A DNA stretch of 60,569 bases, counting the filler, from Sphacelaria rigidula (Eukaryota), in the NCBI GenBank assembly GCA_964200075.2. It is 7 parts of 7 records of this genome, joined end to end, with 100 filler letters (N's around TTAATTAATTAA, not from the genome) between each part and the next. Parts side by side here need not be neighbours in the genome. Positions count along the whole stretch, not along the records: positions 1 to 8,568 come from CAXNAA020010756.1; 6 more parts are not named here. One strand, given 5' to 3'. Below are positions 2,741 through 43,849 of the stretch, piece by piece (position 1 is the first letter of the stretch; each line of letters starts with the position of its first letter). The position numbers and the translations under genes were made by a program. Below the pieces are notes generated by a model that made no database searches, was not told the origin of the DNA, and worked only from the letters and a program-made list of their open reading frames with translations.

Positions 2741-5306
2741 AGTGCATCACCGCAGTTATCGGCAACAACTCCGAGTCCAACGCAACTGATGTCACCACCA
2801 ATGCCGTCACCACCGACACAATCGGCAACATATTTTCACGCGTGACGTCGTCGGCGCGGGTGGAACGGAGCAGAGGAGGGATGACGATGGGTTGGAGTGG
2901 AGCAAGTATGAGGTGCCGATTCGATGAAGAAGGGGGGCGCGTGACCATGGAAGGATGCAGAGGCCGGAGATAGACTTTGGACGATAGAATACTCCGAATA
3001 TGGCCATGTCAAGTGCCTATTCGTTGACAACTTCAGCTTCATGGTATATTCATGCGTTGCACAATTTTGATTCTCGATAAGGCTTTGGATCGTACTATTT
3101 CGAGTGAAAGCGCATTAATGGGACCACCGTCCGACTGCAGTGATTTGACCGGTGGGCATCAGATTTGCAACAGTAATTGGCATGTTTCACAAGGCTTTTG
3201 GGGGATTTGTCGGGAAGTATGCGTAAAAACAGCTGGCGCGCATCGAAACCGCGTGAAAATTCAGACTCATAATTTTGATCTTAGGTGAGTATGGCGGTAC
3301 GACACTTTGTACGATATCGTACATTTTACCGTTGTTCGATTTGAGTTCGATTGTTGTGATTCAATCTCGGTTTCTGGTATCACCGAGATGCTGACATACT
3401 TAGAATTATTTCTTTCGATCTGATTTTGATTTTCGAAATAAAATTCAAGTGTTTCCAACCAGGTGCTGTGGTCACGAAAGAGGTCAGGGGGTCGATCGAT
3501 TTGACAGCATCAACCTTTTGATGGATCATGGCATATGACGAATTCTTTTTGCTTGATTTAGTTTATTGATCTCGGGTTTTGGGACATACTTTTGTGACAT
3601 ATTATGGAAAAAAAAGCATGGCCCGAGATGTGATATTTTATGCCCCCGAAAATTGCAATGTGATATAGGATTAGGGAGGCATGTAATTCAGGAGTTAATT
3701 TTTCTTGATGATCTTGACTTTTTCTTGCCGAGTCTTTCGAGCCTCACGGCATTTGTGTTGTGAGAATTGTTTGATTTTATGGGATTGATCCAAGATTATT
3801 CCTGCGTGATGATATGACCAGGGCCAAGCCTCGACAAGGGGGGCTACTAGAATATTGCCGAACTGAACCCTTCTGCTCATGTACTTGGATTGATTCGGGT
3901 GCATTACGGGGTAGACTGATGGTGTATCAGTGGTACGGGATAGTGTATCATGACCGGATGTACGACATATAAGGCGATGCAGTCAGCACGCAGCGTGCAT
4001 CGCTTGTCACTCTCCGTGTCCTTCATATTTGGGGTGTTTGCATATCTACATCCTGGTGATGTGAACGCAGCTCGGGTGGAGCTTGCATGGTTGATGCTGG
4101 GTGAGTAAAGGGTGTAAAAGGTTAATACAAAAAGAGTGACTGCACATTCCTCTCTGTCCAGAGCACCTAATTCGAGGGGCCTTCATTAACGATCACGACA
4201 GTGAAGAACTGACTGCAGCACGCAAAACAAAGGAGATGGGAGAGACCACCACGTACAGGAGCACAGACAGTGCGGTACAAAAGTCAGTACTGCCCAATCG
4301 TAGTGCAGTACAGTACACACAGCACGGACGGGGTGGCTTGGGCCACTAGCGTCAATACCGTACCTTCTGGTATGGCGCGACCAGAAAGAGCAAAGGTGTC
4401 TTCCACAAAATGGCTGCGTGCAATAAAGTACAACTGATCGCACAACCGTGCAGAACAGTACACAACAAAGACCAGCACACAGGGTGGTTTTCACCGTTTG
4501 ACAGGATCTCTCTCGGATTCGGTGAGATAAGATCTTGAGAGGGTTGAGGGCACGAAGACACATCGTTCTCGACACAGCATGAGTCGATTGGCCCCAAATT
4601 TTGTACAGAGACGGCAAAGCATATGATGAAGGATATGGTGCCACTGTCCCGCCACTGACATCAAAGTCACCCTGAGTCACTGCCTTCGCAGCAGGGCTAT
4701 GCGGGTTCGGGCTGAAGCCTAAAAAATGGGGATGTCGTAGGAGAACATCGACTCCGACACTCACCGAATGAATCAAGAAGATTCCACTTGACCCGATTTA
4801 TTCCACATGAAGTAGCAACGGCTCTCTCACTCCTTGCGGTCTGCAGTCGGGTGGTGCTACGGCGATGGCTGGTGGAGTGCGGAGCATCTGCAAGCGAGAC
4901 TGCTCATATACCGCACCCTTTGTCATGTTCTATTTTCCCAATTCAGCACTGACTGCTTAGTCGGCGCGTGTGTCATAGCCTATTTCTTTCTTCTTTTCTT
5001 TCCATATAGGATTTTGTAGGGGCATTCGGAACATAACCAAGTACACATATTATTATCTTTTTTCATAAATTTTGACTGTCACATATACCGGGGACCTCGA
5101 GTTTGACATGCAGCCATAGCTCTATAGAAATAGTACACGATTTTCCCCGATTCATCACATTCTTCGATCGCCGGTCGCGAAGCCGATAAACTACTATATA
5201 AGACTATAAAGTGAATAGTTATAAAACACACAAATCTTGGCACGGTTTAGCGGATAGATAACCCCTCCCGGAGAGACACAGGCCCACAACACACCATCTG
5301 GGATCC

Positions 5307-5696
5307 ATGAGCCGTGGCCTGTCTCTCGTTGCACTTCTTGGCATCTCATGCCTGACGCCGCAGCATCTGACGGGTGGCCAGGCACAGGTTCTCAAACCGT
5401 CCTCGCATCTCACGAGTCGATGCTACAATTTCCCTGATGATAACTTCAGTCGGGACAATAACGTAAAGGCCAGCTACGGTGCGAGCCCGCACTTGGTGAT
5501 GAGCCCTGGAGATACTGCTATCGACTTCACCTTGCACGATCTTGCTGGCACCGCATGGAACTTGAGGAATGCACTCGAGAAGGGGAACGGGAAGCCCGTA
5601 GTTCTGATAATGGGTATGGCGACGTGTCCGGCCTACCAAGGACTAAACGCGGAAGAATCCGACTACCGATGGACATACTGGAATGAGCAAAACTTG
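5307..5696 (+). CDS. Exon 1 of an iodothyronine deiodinase-like (thioredoxin/AhpC-TSA fold) protein with N-terminal signal peptide; Cys at the Sec-equivalent position
   Basis: ATG at 5307 with a hydrophobic N-terminus (LSLVALLGISCL). PGDTAIDFTLHDLAG and KPVVLIMGMATCPAY parallel the deiodinase RPLVLNFGSCTUPxF motif. GTGAG donor at 5697; 390 nt, phase 0. Confidence 0.8.
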
Positions 5697-6121
5697 GTGA
5701 GAGCACATGAAGCTTACATAATAAATCAATCAATAAATTGATGCAGATTGTGTTCGTTTTTTTTACTTCTGTCTTGGGGTTGCGATCTTGACCGCTGTGC
5801 GCGACATAGCGCGTTGACATTGCGTTTGCGTGTGCTGGATGTGGCTACCGGTGTGTGTGTGGTGGGTTGTCGACATGTGTGTGGTGGGTTGTAGGTTTTT
5901 TGGCGTGGGCTATGAGCTCTGTATCTAGCTGATGAAGGTGACTGAAGTGTCGTGATTGTATTACAGTGTACTGATGACCTCTACGAGTGTTACTCTTCGG
6001 TACTCGCACAACTTACCGCTACTGACAGTAGTACAGGCACGCTACTCTCCTGTAACGAGATGAAAGGGTGACCAAGAAACATGATCCTGTCTATGTTTTG
6101 TTTCGTCTGTTCACCCCAAGA

Positions 6122-6671
6122 GCCGGTCGCCCCGGTGACTCAGTTGGTAACTTCGAAACCCTCTGACGGTTGGGTCGTGGGTTCAATTCTCGGAGCGATC
6201 TGGGATTTTTTCACACCATGTCTTGACAGTGGAGAGCGACTATGTTGTGGGTACACAAAATTCGACGACGAGGGAAAGGGACTGCTGAACCCCTCTCACG
6301 ATAAAAAAGAAAGGCAAGCAGCGCAAAAGGAAGGTGGGGTACTAGATGTATCTCATACTCGGCTCCCGGTATCCTGGTTTGTTTTGTTCTATGTTTTCAA
6401 GTGAAAATGATGGCGATTTATCAGATGATGAGGGGCCCCTTGACCGCCAGGTTACGTCCTCCCTTGAATCGCGATCACTTTCACTTGAAAAAATACTACA
6501 CAACTCAGAGCCAGCGAATAAACCAAGATACCGGGAGCCGAGTTTGAGATACCTCTACCAAAAAAAAAGAAAAACTCCCGTGTTGACCTTGCTCCTGTGT
6601 GACCCCAGCTGTTGCGCCCACATATACCGAAAGGTGTAGACCGGTGCCAAGAATAGATGGGATGAAGACAC

Positions 6672-6701
<30 letters not shown>
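6122..6701 (+). mobile_element. Full-length tRNA-derived SINE with (CA)n tail, in intron 1; carries a nested MITE
   Basis: A-box-like GTGACTCAGTTGG, B-box-like GGTTCAATTC, body shared with four other copies, (CA)n tail at about 6669-6701. Confidence 0.8.
6343..6557. mobile_element. MITE (about 215 bp) with 38-bp terminal inverted repeats, nested in the SINE
   Basis: TAGATGTATCTCATACTCGGCTCCCGGTATCCTGGTTT versus the reverse complement of the right end, TAGAGGTATCTCAAACTCGGCTCCCGGTATCTTGGTTT (3 mismatches). The segment is absent from the other SINE copies. The terminal TA may be the TSD. Confidence 0.85.
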
Positions 6702-6703
<2 letters not shown>

Positions 6704-7059
6704 GGAAACGCGCTTGGCTCTCTCTTTTTGTCCATTATATTCCTTGATTTGCGTTCTAATCTTTTTTTCTTTCTTTTCTCTCATTTTCCTCCTTTTTTTT
6801 CTGATCACGAGCTGGAGTGTCGCAATCACCCACGTGATGCGAGATAATCTTGTTGTGTTGTTTGCGTTCGTGTTTGTGTATGTATTTGCTTGTTATTGTT
6901 GTTGTTTGTTTCTGCTCTTGCTGTGTTGTTGGTGTTGTTGGTGGTGGTGTTATTTTTGTTGTCGCTGCTTCCTTCCTCCTTTCCTTTCTGAGGCCGTTGC
7001 TCGTCTCTTTCTGTTTCTCTCCTTTTTCCTTCTATCATTCTGGGGGGGTTTTGCTGCTG

Positions 7060-7143
7060 CTGACCACGGGCTGGATTGTTGCAATCAGCTAACGTGATAT
7101 AATAAATCGATCGATCGATCAATCAATCAATCAATCAATCAAT
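7060..7143 (+). mobile_element. 3' end of retroposon family C (TGACCACGGCTGGAT motif plus (AATC)n tail)
   Basis: The same motif and tail recur at 46536-46617 (+) and 50922-50993 (-). Confidence 0.6.
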
Positions 7144-8140
7144 GCAGCCGAATCAGAGTGACTCGTTGTCCCGCGACACGTATGAATGGACGATGAGCGA
7201 TCTCGCAGTAGCTGCTTTCCTGCGTACCCAGTACTGTACGGCGCTACTTCTCTCTTTTACCACTGTGACCATGCGCTCACTTGGCCTTCGTTGCAGAACG
7301 GTTACACTAATCGGCAAACTCCCGTCCGGGAAATAAGCATACCGTAAATGTCGTCAGCATCATGAAGTAGCTTGCAGTAATAGTCGGGGACAAGGAGACA
7401 AGAGGTTTCGGGTGATTAGTTCCGGTCAACACCAGGTCACTGGTTGTAGTTGCACTTTGAAGTCCTTCCCTTCCTCGGGACGAGTGCGTGGTCTCAAGGG
7501 ATCAACCCATGTCCCCCCGGTACACGCCTTGCATTTTGGTCGGGTCAGCACTCCCGCACCGTGTCAACCCACGTCGAACAAACCAAGGGTCGGACAAATC
7601 AATGATTCGTCTGGAAATCACTTGGTTTTAGTTTAATTGATTCGAATCGTACGAATCAATCCCTAGGCTTTGTTTTCAGCGTTGCAACCGAGGTACACGC
7701 AGCACAGGTAGCACGTGTGGAATGGCGCAAAAGTTGTGTGGATACCCCTTGGACCAGCGGTCAACTTCTTTCTCCCTTTTGGGCAGTCAGGCCGAAGAAA
7801 TCATGGATTTGGTGATTCGAAGCCGTGATGATTCGTCCTAAACGTTAAAAAAACTCAGTCAACTACTTTGTTTACTCACGTTCTCGCGCTTTCCACGGTG
7901 GAAATCAGATATGCACTACGAAGGAAAAAAAAAACATGCACCGGGCATCTAACCCTCGTTCTCTCCACCCCAATTGCGACAGTCGGACCATCACATTCAC
8001 TGGGGCGCGGCCAACAATGCCCTCATGGCAGAACAGCACAATGTCATTAGACTCAGTTGTCGCCTCCGGCAACGCTGATGTCTCACATTCTTTACTTTCG
8101 CCTGCACTGGCTGAACTGTACTGGCGTTACCGTGGTGCAG

Positions 8141-8332
8141 GTGAGAGCATATGGTGATAAGGCGATATTTGTCCATATATATGGACCGGAGCCCCATCCC
8201 ACTCTGCCCGACACAAACTTTGACGCTGGTAAGCTGCTGTCCAACTACTGGAGCTTGACTCGGCAACACACAACATACAAGGAGCGGGTAGCTGCGGCGA
8301 AAGCTATTAGGCCATTCACCCATCCCGACCAG
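8141..8332 (+). CDS. Exon 2 of the deiodinase-like gene (further exons presumably beyond the contig end at 8568)
   Basis: GTGCAG acceptor, 192 nt in frame, GT donor at 8333. AIFVHIYGPEPHP parallels the deiodinase FLxIYIxEAH motif, and RQHTTYKERVAAAK parallels RxHxxLxDRxxAA. Confidence 0.8.
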
Positions 8333-8568
8333 GTATAGTAACAAGATGACGGTAGAATATGGTGAACGATGGCGTTCATGACGTGTACAGGGTGGGCCAC
8401 CCGAGATCCGAATAGGAATGTTGACACGCGAGTCCCGAGCTCAATTTTGAGTCATTTTGGACGAAATTCTGATACGATGTACGAAGCCTATGCGCAAAGA
8501 CCCCTTCTTAACTCCCCCCCCCCCCCCCCTTTTTTTTTAATTTTTTTTTTTTTGATACGTATCATGTG

Positions 8569-8668
8569 NNNNNNNNNNNNNNNNNNNNNNNNNNNNNNNN
8601 NNNNNNNNNNNNTTAATTAATTAANNNNNNNNNNNNNNNNNNNNNNNNNNNNNNNNNNNNNNNNNNNN
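8569..8668. other. Artificial contig linker (44N-TTAATTAATTAA-44N); also at 17237-17336, 25905-26004, 34573-34672, 43240-43339 and 51905-52004
   Basis: Identical 100-bp spacer with stops in all six frames; the flanking contigs are sorted by length. Confidence 0.98.
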
Positions 8669-10234: not shown

Positions 10235-10556
10235 CTGCAGGAAAAACACAACCTGTTGACTGATGATATTCAGTATACAGATTTTTCTTTTATCAAATAC
10301 GGAAACCGACGAAGACGTTGTACTTTTCATAGCTAGATAGTAATAGCAAAAACAAATTTCCAATGATTCTGTATGCAACGTACGACACATCGATGCAAGA
10401 CAATACAATCGCTACATTCCAGTTAAGCAACAGACAAAACCCTCCACGACCCTGCAGTAGGAACAACCAACCTTTCGGGAGCGAAAACACACAAGAAAAC
10501 AAAAAAACGATACACGTATAATATGTAAATATCGGAACCAGAGACCTCTTCCCCAC

Positions 10557-11228
10557 CTTGACAGACTGCGACGACCCAGGTCGAGAGTTAGACTCTCCCC
10601 CTCCCCCCCTTCCCCCCCCGCCAACACCCACCGGATGACCCTGGGACCCCGACATCACAGATTCACCCAGCGCGGACCCCAGGCCACCGCCAACTCCGGA
10701 CCCACCACCCACCCCACCAACCGCAACGTCTGACATTCCCCAGCCACCGTTACTCGCGGCGGCCCCCGCCCCCGCCCCAGCCTCGGCGCCGACGCCCGAG
10801 GCCCCAGCCCCAGCGGTTGTGGCAGCCCCGGCGGCGGCGGCCCTCACTCCGTTGCCCCCGCCCATGCCCCCCGCCATCATGCCCGACATGCCCACACCAG
10901 TCGAAGCAATACCACTGTGGCCAACGGCCGGAGAAGAAGTCGAAGCCGACGAGACGGGAGCGCCGCCCGTCACACCCAGCCCGGGCGGCGTGGCTTCACC
11001 GCCCACAGCCGCCTGCGTCGCCCACGACTTGGCCAGAGAAGCGTACGTCATCGGGACGGGTGGCCCCGCCGGGGCAGGAGCAGGGGCGGGGGTCGGAGAC
11101 GGGGCTGGAGAGGAAGTGGGCGTCACCGCCGCTGGAGCTGAGGCCGGTTGTTGTTGCTGGGGAGGAGTAGGCGGTACTGCGGTGGCAGCAGCAGCCGCGC
11201 CAGCGGAGGGAGGCGAGGGGGCGCCGCT
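10557..11228 (-). CDS. Exon of NTF2-domain G3BP-like protein (Pro/Ala/Gly-rich disordered region)
   Basis: TTTCTCCAG acceptor, AAG|GTGGGG donor, 672 nt, phase 0. Contains PMTYASLAKSW, similar to the 'SYASIV' motif of G3BP/NTF2-RRM proteins. Confidence 0.8.
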
Positions 11229-12280
11229 CTGGAGAAACCGTAGGGGAGGGTAGGAAGGCGGTGATATTCAAGTGTGTGAGTGATCGTACAATGGGGGAAA
11301 ACTGCTCTGGGGGTGGTGCGTTTCACCACTGTAGTATTCAACCCTTTCATTGCACGGGAGGGGAGAGGGCGGCGGGGCTTGAAACGATTCTTGCAGGATG
11401 GAGCACATTCTCAAATTGTCAACGCAAGCAGCCAATTCCGCAAGAGGCACACCGCGCGATGACGTTTCCACCTGTTATGTACGCGCTCACATTCCATGAA
11501 TATGTGCACGAAAGCGCATAGCAACTGTGAGGAATTGTGTGACATACTCATGACTGTTCGTCGCTTCGTGTGATCGGACACTTAATCTCCCCTCCTCCCC
11601 CCTAGGGGAGGAGGACACGTGAGACGTTTCGACTCCAAAAGGTTCCGAGATCTCGCGGAATTTCAGATATGGTCCCACATCAATTGTGGTTCATAGCGCC
11701 AGTTAAAAGTAGTACGACGGAATCCAGGACGATGAGCTCACCATCAATTGACGAAGAAAATCCAAACTTGAGGGCAAAAATTTACTGAGGGAAGCAGTTA
11801 ATATCTGACAAAAGTTGTGGAGGTGATCTTAGGCGTTTCCCGAACTGATAACATAAGTTCATGGTCTCCAAAATACCAGACCCGAAAAATGTACGTGGAA
11901 CCTCTGTTGAACATGGTTTACATGTTGAGGAGGCCGGTCAATATGCACCTCTCGAGAAAAAGTATCCTTGGAGGATGGTCGAAAGGAAAAATATTTTCAA
12001 GATGTTGCAAAAAATACCATCTTCGAGGACTGATACTGTAAGAAGCTTTTATTTCAAGATGCATCATACTATTCCGAAAAATATCATCATGTCGCTTCGC
12101 AGCAGCTCCGTAACACCGTAACCCTTCGGCCGCGAGCACCGGTGATCTATTGAATCAGCATGACCAGATGACCTAACCTCGCGGTCAATAAACAAAGCAC
12201 CAGAGCATTTCTCGGAACAATTTCAACGACTGACTTGCCCCGCCGACAACCCCGATGCTACATACACATGAATATATATG

Positions 12281-16691: not shown

Positions 16692-17336
16692 CTGCACAAA
16701 CAACGAAGGCGCGGAAGAAAAAAAGACACACACACACATACACGCACGTGAACATCATAATGTTTCGTAGAGTACGCTTTCTTGTACACCCGAGGTGTTT
16801 TACCGGGAAATACCCGTACTCGACAGTTTTAAGAGTTCAGTAAGCCCTCTCATACCAGTACCTGACACTTCCTTGATATTTATACGAACTATTTACCCAT
16901 GACCGGGGCGTGCGTATAATACCCATATAAAAATACCCTGGTTGCGGATATTGGTTGTTGTACATCCTCCATGCCGGGGACACGGCAGCTTTTGTTCTTC
17001 AGACTTTCACACAGGTACCCGACAGTTCCGCAACATCTGGAACGAATTTCATCCCGTACCGATCATGCACATATCCTACAAAACACAAGCTTGAAAAAAT
17101 GTACCGATTTCTTCGCCCTAGCACCACCAAAACCTCTGTTCTCGACACAAATTCATCGGTAGAACTTGAAGAAACACTTGAGCGCCAGATGCTTTGCTTT
17201 GATCGCTAATTCATGACCACTAGGGGGATAGGGGGGNNNNNNNNNNNNNNNNNNNNNNNNNNNNNNNNNNNNNNNNNNNNTTAATTAATTAANNNNNNNN
17301 NNNNNNNNNNNNNNNNNNNNNNNNNNNNNNNNNNNN

Positions 17337-25830: not shown

Positions 25831-26059
25831 GGGGGGGGGGGGGGGCACCATTTTTTGCTTGCCCTTGGGGGGTGCCCATTGACCAGCCCTCCCTTTTGAG
25901 GAGGNNNNNNNNNNNNNNNNNNNNNNNNNNNNNNNNNNNNNNNNNNNNTTAATTAATTAANNNNNNNNNNNNNNNNNNNNNNNNNNNNNNNNNNNNNNNN
26001 NNNNCCTGGTCATCATCCAGGATCCTACATGCTACATCTACTACGCCTTGGTGTATTTT

Positions 26060-33555: not shown

Positions 33556-34672
33556 TAGTGTGTGTGTGGGGGGGGGGGAAGTGAGTGTGAATCGCAAGGA
33601 AATTTTGCCTTGGGTGCAAATGTTTTCGTGTCCAAAGGCGTCTAGAACATTGGAGGTCAAGACTCTAGTGAACACAGGAAGTCCAGCGACATTCATTCGG
33701 TACAAGGTGTGGAAAACAATGGCTGAGGCCGGGGCGGCTACCATAAAAGGTGCCCGTGAAGTAGACCTTGTGTCCTGGAGGGACTTCGATGGCTTCCAGT
33801 TGTGTACTTTTCACAGGTGCTGTTGGATATCAGACAGTGGCTTAGAAGACTCAACCCACGAATGTCGGTTTAAAACGGACGAGCATGTGTAGCAAGTTAC
33901 GCCCCTGTTGTACCATATGGAACAATGGACGATGATACCCTAGTAGGACGTGATGGCCTAGGTTTATTGTCGGGCAGAACGTATCGTGATGTTAACCGAC
34001 GAGAGACAATCATGACATTGTGAGGGAACGACATTGATTTTGTTGATCGTGCGTTCGCGGATCACGTTCGCAATGCCGTTGGCTTCATTGAACCCAAGTC
34101 GTCAGCGGCCCAAGTGATAGTAATGTACAACGGATATCATAGTATGGTACGACCTGATACTTTGCCATGGGTTCCTGTCAAACAATTCAACATGGACGGA
34201 ACGCCCACCACCGGTGGCTCTTACTATGCGACCCTGGATCCCGATTGGTCCCCGCATGAAGTAATCATAGATGCTGTAGAATTCATCATCCTTCTCAGTT
34301 ATACTGTCTCGGAGGGGGAGATGTTATCTCCTAATACGACTTTGAGATTTGCCGGGGCACCGTTAATACCTTGCTCTTGGGCAGATGTTGCGATTTCCAC
34401 TATAAGTGAGGAAAGATCTTAGAAGGCACTTATGGTCGAACCGGAGAGATGCTGACGTCTGTTTCATTTGGGCTAGTAACAGCCGATTCTCGAAAATGGG
34501 GTTGAAAAAAAGAATGAGGTTCAACTCAAAAGCCGTGCTTTGCCTGACCTGAATTCAAGACAAATGACTTCCNNNNNNNNNNNNNNNNNNNNNNNNNNNN
34601 NNNNNNNNNNNNNNNNTTAATTAATTAANNNNNNNNNNNNNNNNNNNNNNNNNNNNNNNNNNNNNNNNNNNN

Positions 34673-43143: not shown

Positions 43144-43849
43144 TAGGGGGGGGGGGGGGGGGGGGGGTTGCTGGCGACATCACAAAGTGTGATTGTTTTG
43201 TTGGGTGGGGGTAGGGCGACGAGATACCGCAGAAAAGAANNNNNNNNNNNNNNNNNNNNNNNNNNNNNNNNNNNNNNNNNNNNTTAATTAATTAANNNNN
43301 NNNNNNNNNNNNNNNNNNNNNNNNNNNNNNNNNNNNNNNCTCCAGCCCCCCCCCCCCTCCTCCCCTCCCGTTCTCGGAATGGGTTCGTAGCCTTAAAGAA
43401 TCAACCAGGCCATCTCTCCCGCGGTACCTGCCTCCCTTACACTTCACTGTTCTCGCGAATTTTTTCGCTCAAGTCAAAATGTCCAATGTGGACAGGGTAC
43501 AACCGTACAACCCGTACGCGTGCAGTAGGATAGCGAAAGATTACTAGAAATACATGGCGACCCCAAGCCCCCAACCCGTGCAAACAGTTTGTTGGAGTTG
43601 AATTTTTCACTCTCCACGTTGGGAGGGGAATATGCCCGTGGTGATTGTGCGGGCGGTAGATTGACCATGACCTGAGATTGGCGCGCAATTGTACACAGAA
43701 ATTATGCATGAGGGTATTCCTCTCAAATTTATACCTATAGGTGAAAGTTCGCTCAACGGTACTCGTACCGTACACCATGTATCGCAGTTGCCAATCTTGT
43801 ACGGTTTTCGAACGAGAACGGACAGCCCTGTGTAGTATCGAGCAGTAAC

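Follow-up and report, generated by a model that had tools for sequence, protein, structure and literature searches.

A cysteine-containing deiodinase-like gene of Sphacelaria rigidula in a divergent, probably extracytoplasmic branch of the deiodinase-like proteins

The DNA analysed in this study (the window; 60,569 nucleotides of Sphacelaria rigidula, assembly GCA_964200075.2, filler included) contains, at positions 5307-8332, a gene described in a first-pass annotation as a secreted-type, Cys-containing iodothyronine deiodinase-like gene with a possible part in algal iodine metabolism. This raises the question of whether the locus encodes a relative of the animal deiodinases DIO1-3 and, if so, what reaction its product may catalyze. 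Our analysis revealed a genuine, spliced gene, one member of a set of about four paralogues, which belongs to a separate, divergent and probably extracytoplasmic branch of deiodinase-like proteins. With evenly balanced confidence, we read its product as a secreted one-cysteine oxidoreductase, built on the deiodinase version of the thioredoxin (Trx) fold and engaged in redox upkeep of the cell surface and cell wall. It might also take part in the recycling of iodine by the seaweed.

The window consists of contigs of approximately 8.57 kb chained by artificial linkers, and the contig carrying the gene (G000:C10756, G000 being the assembly) ends at position 8568. The contigs on either side of the linkers are unrelated, and therefore nothing past 8568 truly neighbours the gene. 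The features are as follows:

5307-5696, plus strand: exon 1, coding (aa 1-130, ATG at 5307), with a signal-like N-terminus, Cys39, a peroxiredoxin (Prx)-like beta-hairpin, beta1 with M-G-M-A-T-C-P, and a 10-aa insert
5307-5384, plus strand: probable signal peptide, cleavable and ending at roughly aa 26, judged from hydropathy and similar N-termini of homologues
5421-5423, plus strand: codon of Cys39, putative structural disulfide partner of the exon-3 PVWC Cys, from covariation among homologues
5616-5627, plus strand: Met104-Ala105-Thr106-Cys107, corresponding in the profile alignment to Ser167-Cys168-Thr169-Sec170 of Dio3; Cys107 is the catalytic candidate
5697-8140, plus strand: intron 1, phase 0, GT..AG, 2444 nt, with high-copy repeats inside, at a position common to the paralogues
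8141-8332, plus strand: exon 2, coding (aa 131-194), with beta2, the Omega-loop and the alphaD helix
8180-8197, plus strand: Tyr144 and Glu147-Pro-His149, corresponding to Dio3 Tyr197, Glu200 and His202; Omega-loop anchor
8264-8287, plus strand: Gln172-His173...Arg179, corresponding to Dio3 Gln218, His219 and Arg225; His173 is variable across the family
8333-8568, plus strand: start of intron 2, truncated where the contig stops; the window does not contain exon 3
8569-8668, 17237-17336, 25905-26004, 34573-34672, 43240-43339 and 51905-52004: 100-nt linkers (N44-TTAATTAATTAA-N44)

The two spliceable exons and the motifs reported for them were all located where they had been placed: KPVVLIMGMATCPAY of exon 1 contains Cys107 (TGT at 5625-5627), while exon 2, in phase 0, carries FVHIYGPEPHP and RQHTTYKERVAAA. 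The donor GT is at 5697 and the acceptor AG ends at 8140. Comparison of four sequencing runs showed that contigs of runs X6 and X8 (one study; probable RNA runs, judged from the intron skip, as none of the runs is recorded as RNA) omit exactly this 2444-nt intron with its GT..AG ends, the X6 contig spanning 5297-5695. The unique intron bins have zero depth in both runs; in X1 and X5, the intron is covered and the exon joint is absent. The X6/X8 transcript (contigs of 2185 and 3010 nt) continues beyond 8332 into a third exon, beginning IILPDYLPGN. Of the 3′ exons that RNA-seq had been suggested to recover, the start of exon 3 is thus present in the transcript; the exon has no exact match in the assembly, where a protein search likewise yielded no exon 3 of this gene. 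The equivalents of the Phe258/Arg275 substrate clamp lie in this absent exon. The assembly contains four matches to exon 1, four to exon 2 and three to exon 3 (all paralogues, the nearest with 6 mismatches in 30), with identical intron positions, and one contig (C10437) carries all three exons. Bacterial contamination was ruled out by the spliceosomal introns, their positions common to the paralogues, and the placement of the gene in a brown-algal clade, which bears out the proposed algal origin of the contig. The open frames and the spliced transcript ruled out a pseudogene.

Two peculiarities of splice sites were observed in this gene group. Nucleotides 5697-5709 of the intron and 8141-8153 of exon 2 are identical at 12 of 13 positions, which goes beyond the donor consensus and is not the case in the paralogues; this possibly reflects a small duplication or conversion, an assembly artefact being ruled out by run X1, which spans both ends. 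The second intron of one paralogue (G000:C25548, L012) seemingly starts with GC, not GT.

The relationship of the product to the iodothyronine deiodinases was examined by profile and by fold. In the PDB, a profile of 65 homologues matched mouse Dio3 (E 2e-16) and Dio2 (3.6e-12) ahead of thiol-redox proteins and peroxiredoxins (from 1.4e-6). The joined exons align to this profile (311 positions) at 2e-67, and the residue map presented below rests on that alignment. A profile of six sequences gave solely Prx/TlpA-type matches (best E 0.004), the Dio match emerging with 65 sequences. In an hhalign comparison, the branch matched the canonical bacterial deiodinase-like proteins at 99.2% (E 2.5e-19). 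In the comparison of T4_deiodinase with AhpC-TSA that had been suggested, the Pfam scores of the nearest homologues reached neither cut-off. Four full-length nearest homologues scored at most 16.4 bits against T4_deiodinase (PF00837, cut-off 27 bits), and the two exons, searched separately, gave no match to it; among the 65 family members, 44 have a match with E<=0.1, the strongest at 5.4e-11. AhpC-TSA (cut-off 26) matched the separate exons weakly (E 0.05, 14 bits, profile positions 1-39 of 124) and the homologues at 12.9-19.6 bits, in the same N-terminal part. The best NCBIfam family was deiodinase_rel (NF038285), at 17-40 bits for the algal proteins with a cut-off of 250. A PF00837 scan of the assembly gave no match, with its control also silent, and has no bearing on the presence of a canonical DIO in the alga.

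The AlphaFold2 model of the Choristocarpus homologue P0003 (pLDDT 93.6) pointed in the same direction. Its top match in Foldseek was mouse Dio2 (9h48), and VIA placed Dio3 (4tr4) first of 48,161 chains (Z 17.3, root-mean-square deviation 3.2, 169 residues aligned), followed by TlpA/ResA/DsbE-type proteins (Z 14-15, the second-best Z being 15.0). ESM Atlas searches with P0003 likewise point to deiodinases; exon 1 alone gave scores all below 0.9, which we treat as a lead. Deiodinases, and not a generic peroxiredoxin or TlpA, were therefore the best match, with the EPH and ERxxAA motifs in register. On these comparisons of profiles and predicted structure, we consider that homology to the iodothyronine deiodinases holds.

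The alignment with DIO1-3 (4TR3/4TR4, mouse Dio3; 9H48, mouse Dio2; PF00837), to which the algal protein is approximately 20% identical, revealed a mixture of shared and missing features. Both have the Trx fold, the Prx-like hairpin, the Omega-loop insertion, and T-U/C-P, Y-x-x-E-x-H-P and Q-H-x5-R in register. The equivalents of Dio3 Thr169 (Thr106), Tyr197 (Tyr144), Glu200 (Glu147), His202 (His149), Gln218 (Gln172), His219 (His173) and Arg225 (Arg179) are kept (for the residue roles in Dio3 see PMC7506546 and PMC11592359), and Sec170 is replaced by Cys107. Cys is found in all 15 brown-algal rows in which the column is filled, preceded by Thr or Ser, and the Glu, His and Arg are invariant (14/14). 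In contrast to Dio3, Ser167 is replaced by Met104, with Met in 15/15 filled brown-algal rows; a Ser167Ala change lowers Dio3 activity by over 90% (PMC7506546). The equivalents of the resolving cysteines are missing (Ala105 for Cys168, Gln194 for Cys239), Ala at the former position being shared with Dio2. Trp207 is not kept, the profile alignment placing Lys after the loop Gly, and a Trp six residues further on might stand in for it. The Omega-loop is 7 residues longer than in Dio3. The extra segment that had been noticed after the catalytic Cys is real and amounts to 10 residues in comparison with the canonical deiodinase-like proteins; residues 98-118 are non-helical in the P0003 model. The algal protein also differs from DIO1-3 in an extra Cys pair and apparently in a short signal-like N-terminus in place of a membrane anchor. 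The architecture is thus Dio-like, yet several hallmarks of DIO1-3 are missing.

Of the claim that three motifs occur in deiodinase order, the register with Dio3 held, whereas the His of the third motif proved variable in the family. At the 219 position, His occurs in 2 of 14 brown-algal rows and in none of 24 GTDB, 69 other and 15 canonical bacterial rows. Among 68 distinct exon-2 sequences of the algal type, 10 have His here, and these belong to two paralogue lineages (2/19 rows of the clade containing this gene and 8/12 of another, in a short alignment). The His of "RQH" has been gained repeatedly, a single base change away from Pro, and does not count as conserved catalytic evidence.

Bacterial relatives bear on the nature of Cys107. 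A motif scan of GTDB (one pattern, so that its 26 loci are a subset) detected members in Myxococcota, Chloroflexota, Thermodesulfobacteriota, Acidobacteriota and others. The catalytic codon of the 24 readable loci is TGA in 16 and TGC or TGT in 8; of the remaining loci, L032 is cut off, and the frameshifted L041 also has TGA. The hairpin located 13-40 nt downstream has a mean energy of -9.2 kcal/mol in 17 TGA forms versus -4.5 kcal/mol in 8 Cys forms (p 0.005), with 76.5% of cells paired and 9 cells showing double (compensatory) changes; it is a named structure taken from the sequences and from single folds, with a slide control biased in its favour, and RNAalifold found no consensus hairpin in the 17 stretches downstream of TGA. 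This hairpin resembles a bacterial selenocysteine insertion sequence (SECIS). The alternation of selenocysteine (Sec) and Cys is an established mark of a redox Cys. Since TGA and a SECIS-like hairpin accompany this position in the bacterial relatives, Cys107 is very likely redox-active and is a candidate catalytic residue, in agreement with the redox-type active-site Cys originally proposed.

The 17 TGA loci (within L016-L041) are likely selenoprotein lipoproteins of the branch, which open reading frame (ORF) calling splits at TGA. The branch also enlarges the list of bacterial selenoproteins, with members that gene prediction breaks at this codon.

The hydrophobic, signal-peptide-like N-terminus that had been predicted was borne out by Kyte-Doolittle hydropathy (best 10-mer 2.7 at residue 7, best 19-mer 1.25), by which it appears more like a signal peptide than a membrane anchor. 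Most homologue rows also have a hydrophobic N-terminus, bacterial rows often with a lipobox-like LxGC, and several eukaryotic-type rows have a C-terminal membrane segment. The N-terminal Cys (Cys39 in this protein) and the PVWC Cys are both present in 76 of 91 scorable rows, whereas 10 rows have neither and 5 are mixed; of the rows with neither, about half are also without a signal-like N-terminus. This covariation suggests that Cys39 and the exon-3 PVWC Cys may form a structural disulfide. An extra C-[PA]-x-C lies beside the active-site loop in 9 of 21 bacterial-type rows and is not found in algae.

A full HMMER scan with a limit of E<=0.001 yielded 816 representatives. The named homologues are proteins of Choristocarpus, Undaria, Ascophyllum, Scytosiphon, Pylaiella, Ectocarpus, Hapterophycus and Laminaria, and cluster labels place the unicellular ochrophytes Florenciella, Pseudopedinella and Heterosigma in the branch as well. 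Amino acid identity is 60% (exon 1) and 59% (exon 2) to the Ascophyllum protein, and 50% and 55%, respectively, to the Choristocarpus homologue. The orthologue of Ectocarpus (CBN79263) is annotated merely as unknown or "thioredoxin domain". In a quick IQ-TREE phylogeny (124 rows, midpoint root, animal DIO sequences not included), all 16 brown-algal rows and one unlabelled row form a clade (support 97), within which the gene is joined by the Ascophyllum sequence and a single paralogue of Ectocarpales (98); the 15 canonical deiodinase-like proteins of bacteria are set apart on a long branch (100). The suggested phylogeny thus placed the gene among brown algae and apart from the canonical bacterial type. 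There are three or more paralogue lineages in brown algae, and Ectocarpales retain several paralogues. As members are likewise found in Florenciella, Pseudopedinella, Heterosigma and many bacteria, those of sediments included, the branch is older than brown-algal iodine accumulation.

The canonical bacterial deiodinase-like proteins (PF00837 over cut-off, NF038285; PMC1088965) share with the branch the Sec/Cys alternation, E-A/P-H-P, and Q-P-x5-R with Pro at the 219 position. They differ in having YAAWPERLY where the algal branch has NPVWC(T/S)Y, and in being without the N-terminal Cys motif; both types occur together in two genomes (G001, G004). The Cys deiodinase of amphioxus, compared by its description alone (PMC8143656), also has a natural Cys at the active site; unlike the algal protein, it is an animal DIO with demonstrated activity on iodothyroacetates. 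BCP/PrxQ and AhpE peroxiredoxins, as well as TlpA/ResA/DsbE, have in common with the algal protein the AhpC-TSA-type N-terminal hairpin and the Trx core, but their matches are weaker and, in sequence, N-terminal only, and they are without the Omega-loop and the EPH motif. The CxxC active site of TlpA/ResA/DsbE is absent from the algal protein.

Two groups of relatives deviate from this pattern. P0080, P0110, P0156, P0140 and P0082, without a signal peptide or the Cys pair and with Q-P-H/F-P in place of E-P-H-P, constitute a probable cytosolic thioredoxin-like offshoot; the active site reads C-P-x-C in P0080, P0110 and P0156, the last two of which begin with MG. P0073, P0102 and one further bacterial-type member of A3 carry fused multiheme cytochrome c stretches with CxxCH, a possible hint at electron supply.

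These observations can be combined into the following model. The protein would be routed through the endoplasmic reticulum (ER) and secreted to the cell wall, where Cys107, held by a network of Thr106, Tyr144, Glu147, His149, Gln172 and Arg179, would attack an oxidised or electrophilic substrate held beneath the long Omega-loop. Because a nearby resolving Cys is absent, oxidised Cys107 would be re-reduced by an outside thiol (a ping-pong mechanism), with the putative Cys39-PVWC disulfide playing a structural part. Its likeliest task would be the reduction of peroxide-, hypohalite- or sulfenyl/disulfide-type oxidation products, rather than deiodination of the thyroid-hormone type. The C-[PA]-x-C rows and the C-P-x-C subgroup fit thiol-redox chemistry, and the spread across bacteria and microalgae fits a general role; a general redox function was proposed for bacterial deiodinase-like proteins by Zhang et al. 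2005 (PMC1088965). Several points weigh against this model. In the literature covered, no activity is known for any deiodinase-like protein outside animals; PMC13188914 lists these proteins as bioinformatic finds. The Omega-loop and the Glu/His anchor serve iodothyronine binding in Dio3 (PMC7506546), so these Dio-specific elements also fit a haloaromatic substrate. The model calls for a reductant within an oxidising cell wall. The hairpin test and the Cys-pair covariation ignore kinship among rows, the putative disulfide is deduced from covariation, the structure is a prediction for a homologue whose exons 1 and 2 are 50% and 55% identical, and the bacterial neighbourhoods (101 ORFs) gave no functional clue.

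Those same Dio-specific elements would fit a reductive dehalogenase, in which Cys107 would take I+ or Br+ from iodo- or bromo-aromatics of the wall (candidate substrates being iodotyrosines, thyronine-like compounds and halogenated phlorotannins) and return halide, opposing the vanadium haloperoxidases. The nearest solved structures are those of Dio2 and Dio3, the Dio3 equivalents from Thr169 to Arg225 listed above are all in this protein, the Cys-containing deiodinase of amphioxus acts on iodothyroacetates (Klootwijk 2011, as reviewed in PMC8143656), and monoiodotyrosine, diiodotyrosine and halophenolics occur in brown algae (PMC2866472); moreover, no fewer than two of the three or more brown-algal paralogue lineages gained His at the 219 position. 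We nevertheless consider this reading plausible but rather unlikely, given the uniform Met at Ser167, the loss of Trp207 beside a lengthened loop, T4_deiodinase scores under the cut-off for the four nearest first matches, and a His219 that is unstable even in its own clade and a single base change from Pro. In addition, the branch is older and wider than brown-algal iodine accumulation, and Ectocarpales, mostly without expanded vanadium haloperoxidase families (bioRxiv 2024.02.19.579948), keep several paralogues. The proposed removal arm of algal iodine metabolism, which also meets with the missing Cys168 and Cys239 equivalents and a lineage-specific His219 match, is therefore unsupported.

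A monothiol enzyme that isomerises or reduces the disulfides of secreted proteins, playing a TlpA/ResA-like part in the ER or wall and using the Omega-loop to bind a client protein, would agree with the second rank of TlpA/ResA/DsbE-type proteins in structure, the extracytoplasmic location of members and the C-P-x-C of one subgroup. It appears improbable, as the site reads T-C-P-A-Y and not CxxC, the brown-algal homologues are without an ER-retention tail, and DsbD and cytochrome-maturation genes are absent among the 101 bacterial neighbours. Finally, the algal protein could be without catalytic activity and serve in the wall or at the surface to bind a ligand, phenolic or halogenated, its Cys being vestigial: the algal branch lost the Ser167 equivalent and gained about 10 residues after the Cys, which, with residues 98-118 non-helical in the homologue's model, no longer heads helix 1. 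The conservation of the Cys, of the preceding Thr/Ser, and of the Glu, His and Arg makes this highly improbable.

Bacterial Sec and Cys deiodinase-like proteins are already known (PMC1088965, PMC13188914, PMC9402790), as are algal DIO homologues, 80% of them with Sec (PMC7539508). Our literature search, which left subscription papers mostly outside, found no paper linking a deiodinase-like gene to brown algae and no description of the exported, disulfide-bearing branch; the word "deiodinase" has no occurrence in the Saccharina genome paper, a 60-genome brown-algal preprint and a halogen review. Reports of deiodinase-like proteins from organisms other than animals go back to 2005 (PMC1088965), and in the literature covered we found neither a function nor a substrate for them. 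As the protein is soluble, Cys-based and expressed, and its source organisms abound in iodinated aromatics, it offers an easy test of deiodinase-fold halogen chemistry outside animals. A bolder proposal, which we hold to be slightly less likely even than the dehalogenase reading, is that brown algae expanded this secreted Cys branch into cell-wall dehalogenases recovering iodide and bromide, with at least two lineages, among them that of this gene, independently regaining the animal-type His219. If so, the substrates would be halogenated tyrosines and phlorotannins, and haloperoxidase chemistry would gain a reverse arm; the selenocysteine lipoproteins of sediment bacteria would be periplasmic organohalide reductases, and the thyroid-hormone deiodinases of animals a late specialisation of an old haloaromatic-reducing fold.

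The surroundings of the bacterial and algal genes were also inspected. Among the 101 neighbour ORFs of the 26 bacterial loci (up to 3 on each side, at most 700 aa; Pfam), we found no shared operon, reductive dehalogenase, DsbD or cytochrome-maturation gene; they include one SelB (at L027, a Cys form), and AFOR in two related loci. In the algal contig, two TATAAA-like boxes are located at 5205-5226, 80-100 nt upstream of the ATG. The repeats of intron 1 (approximately 6100-6650 and 7480-7970) are of very high copy, with a summed depth of up to 1e6 in X1; they occur in the probable RNA runs too, and similar text is found near 290-560 and 1060-1100. The second contig of the window contains, at 10293-11267, long Pro/Ala-rich open frames on both strands.

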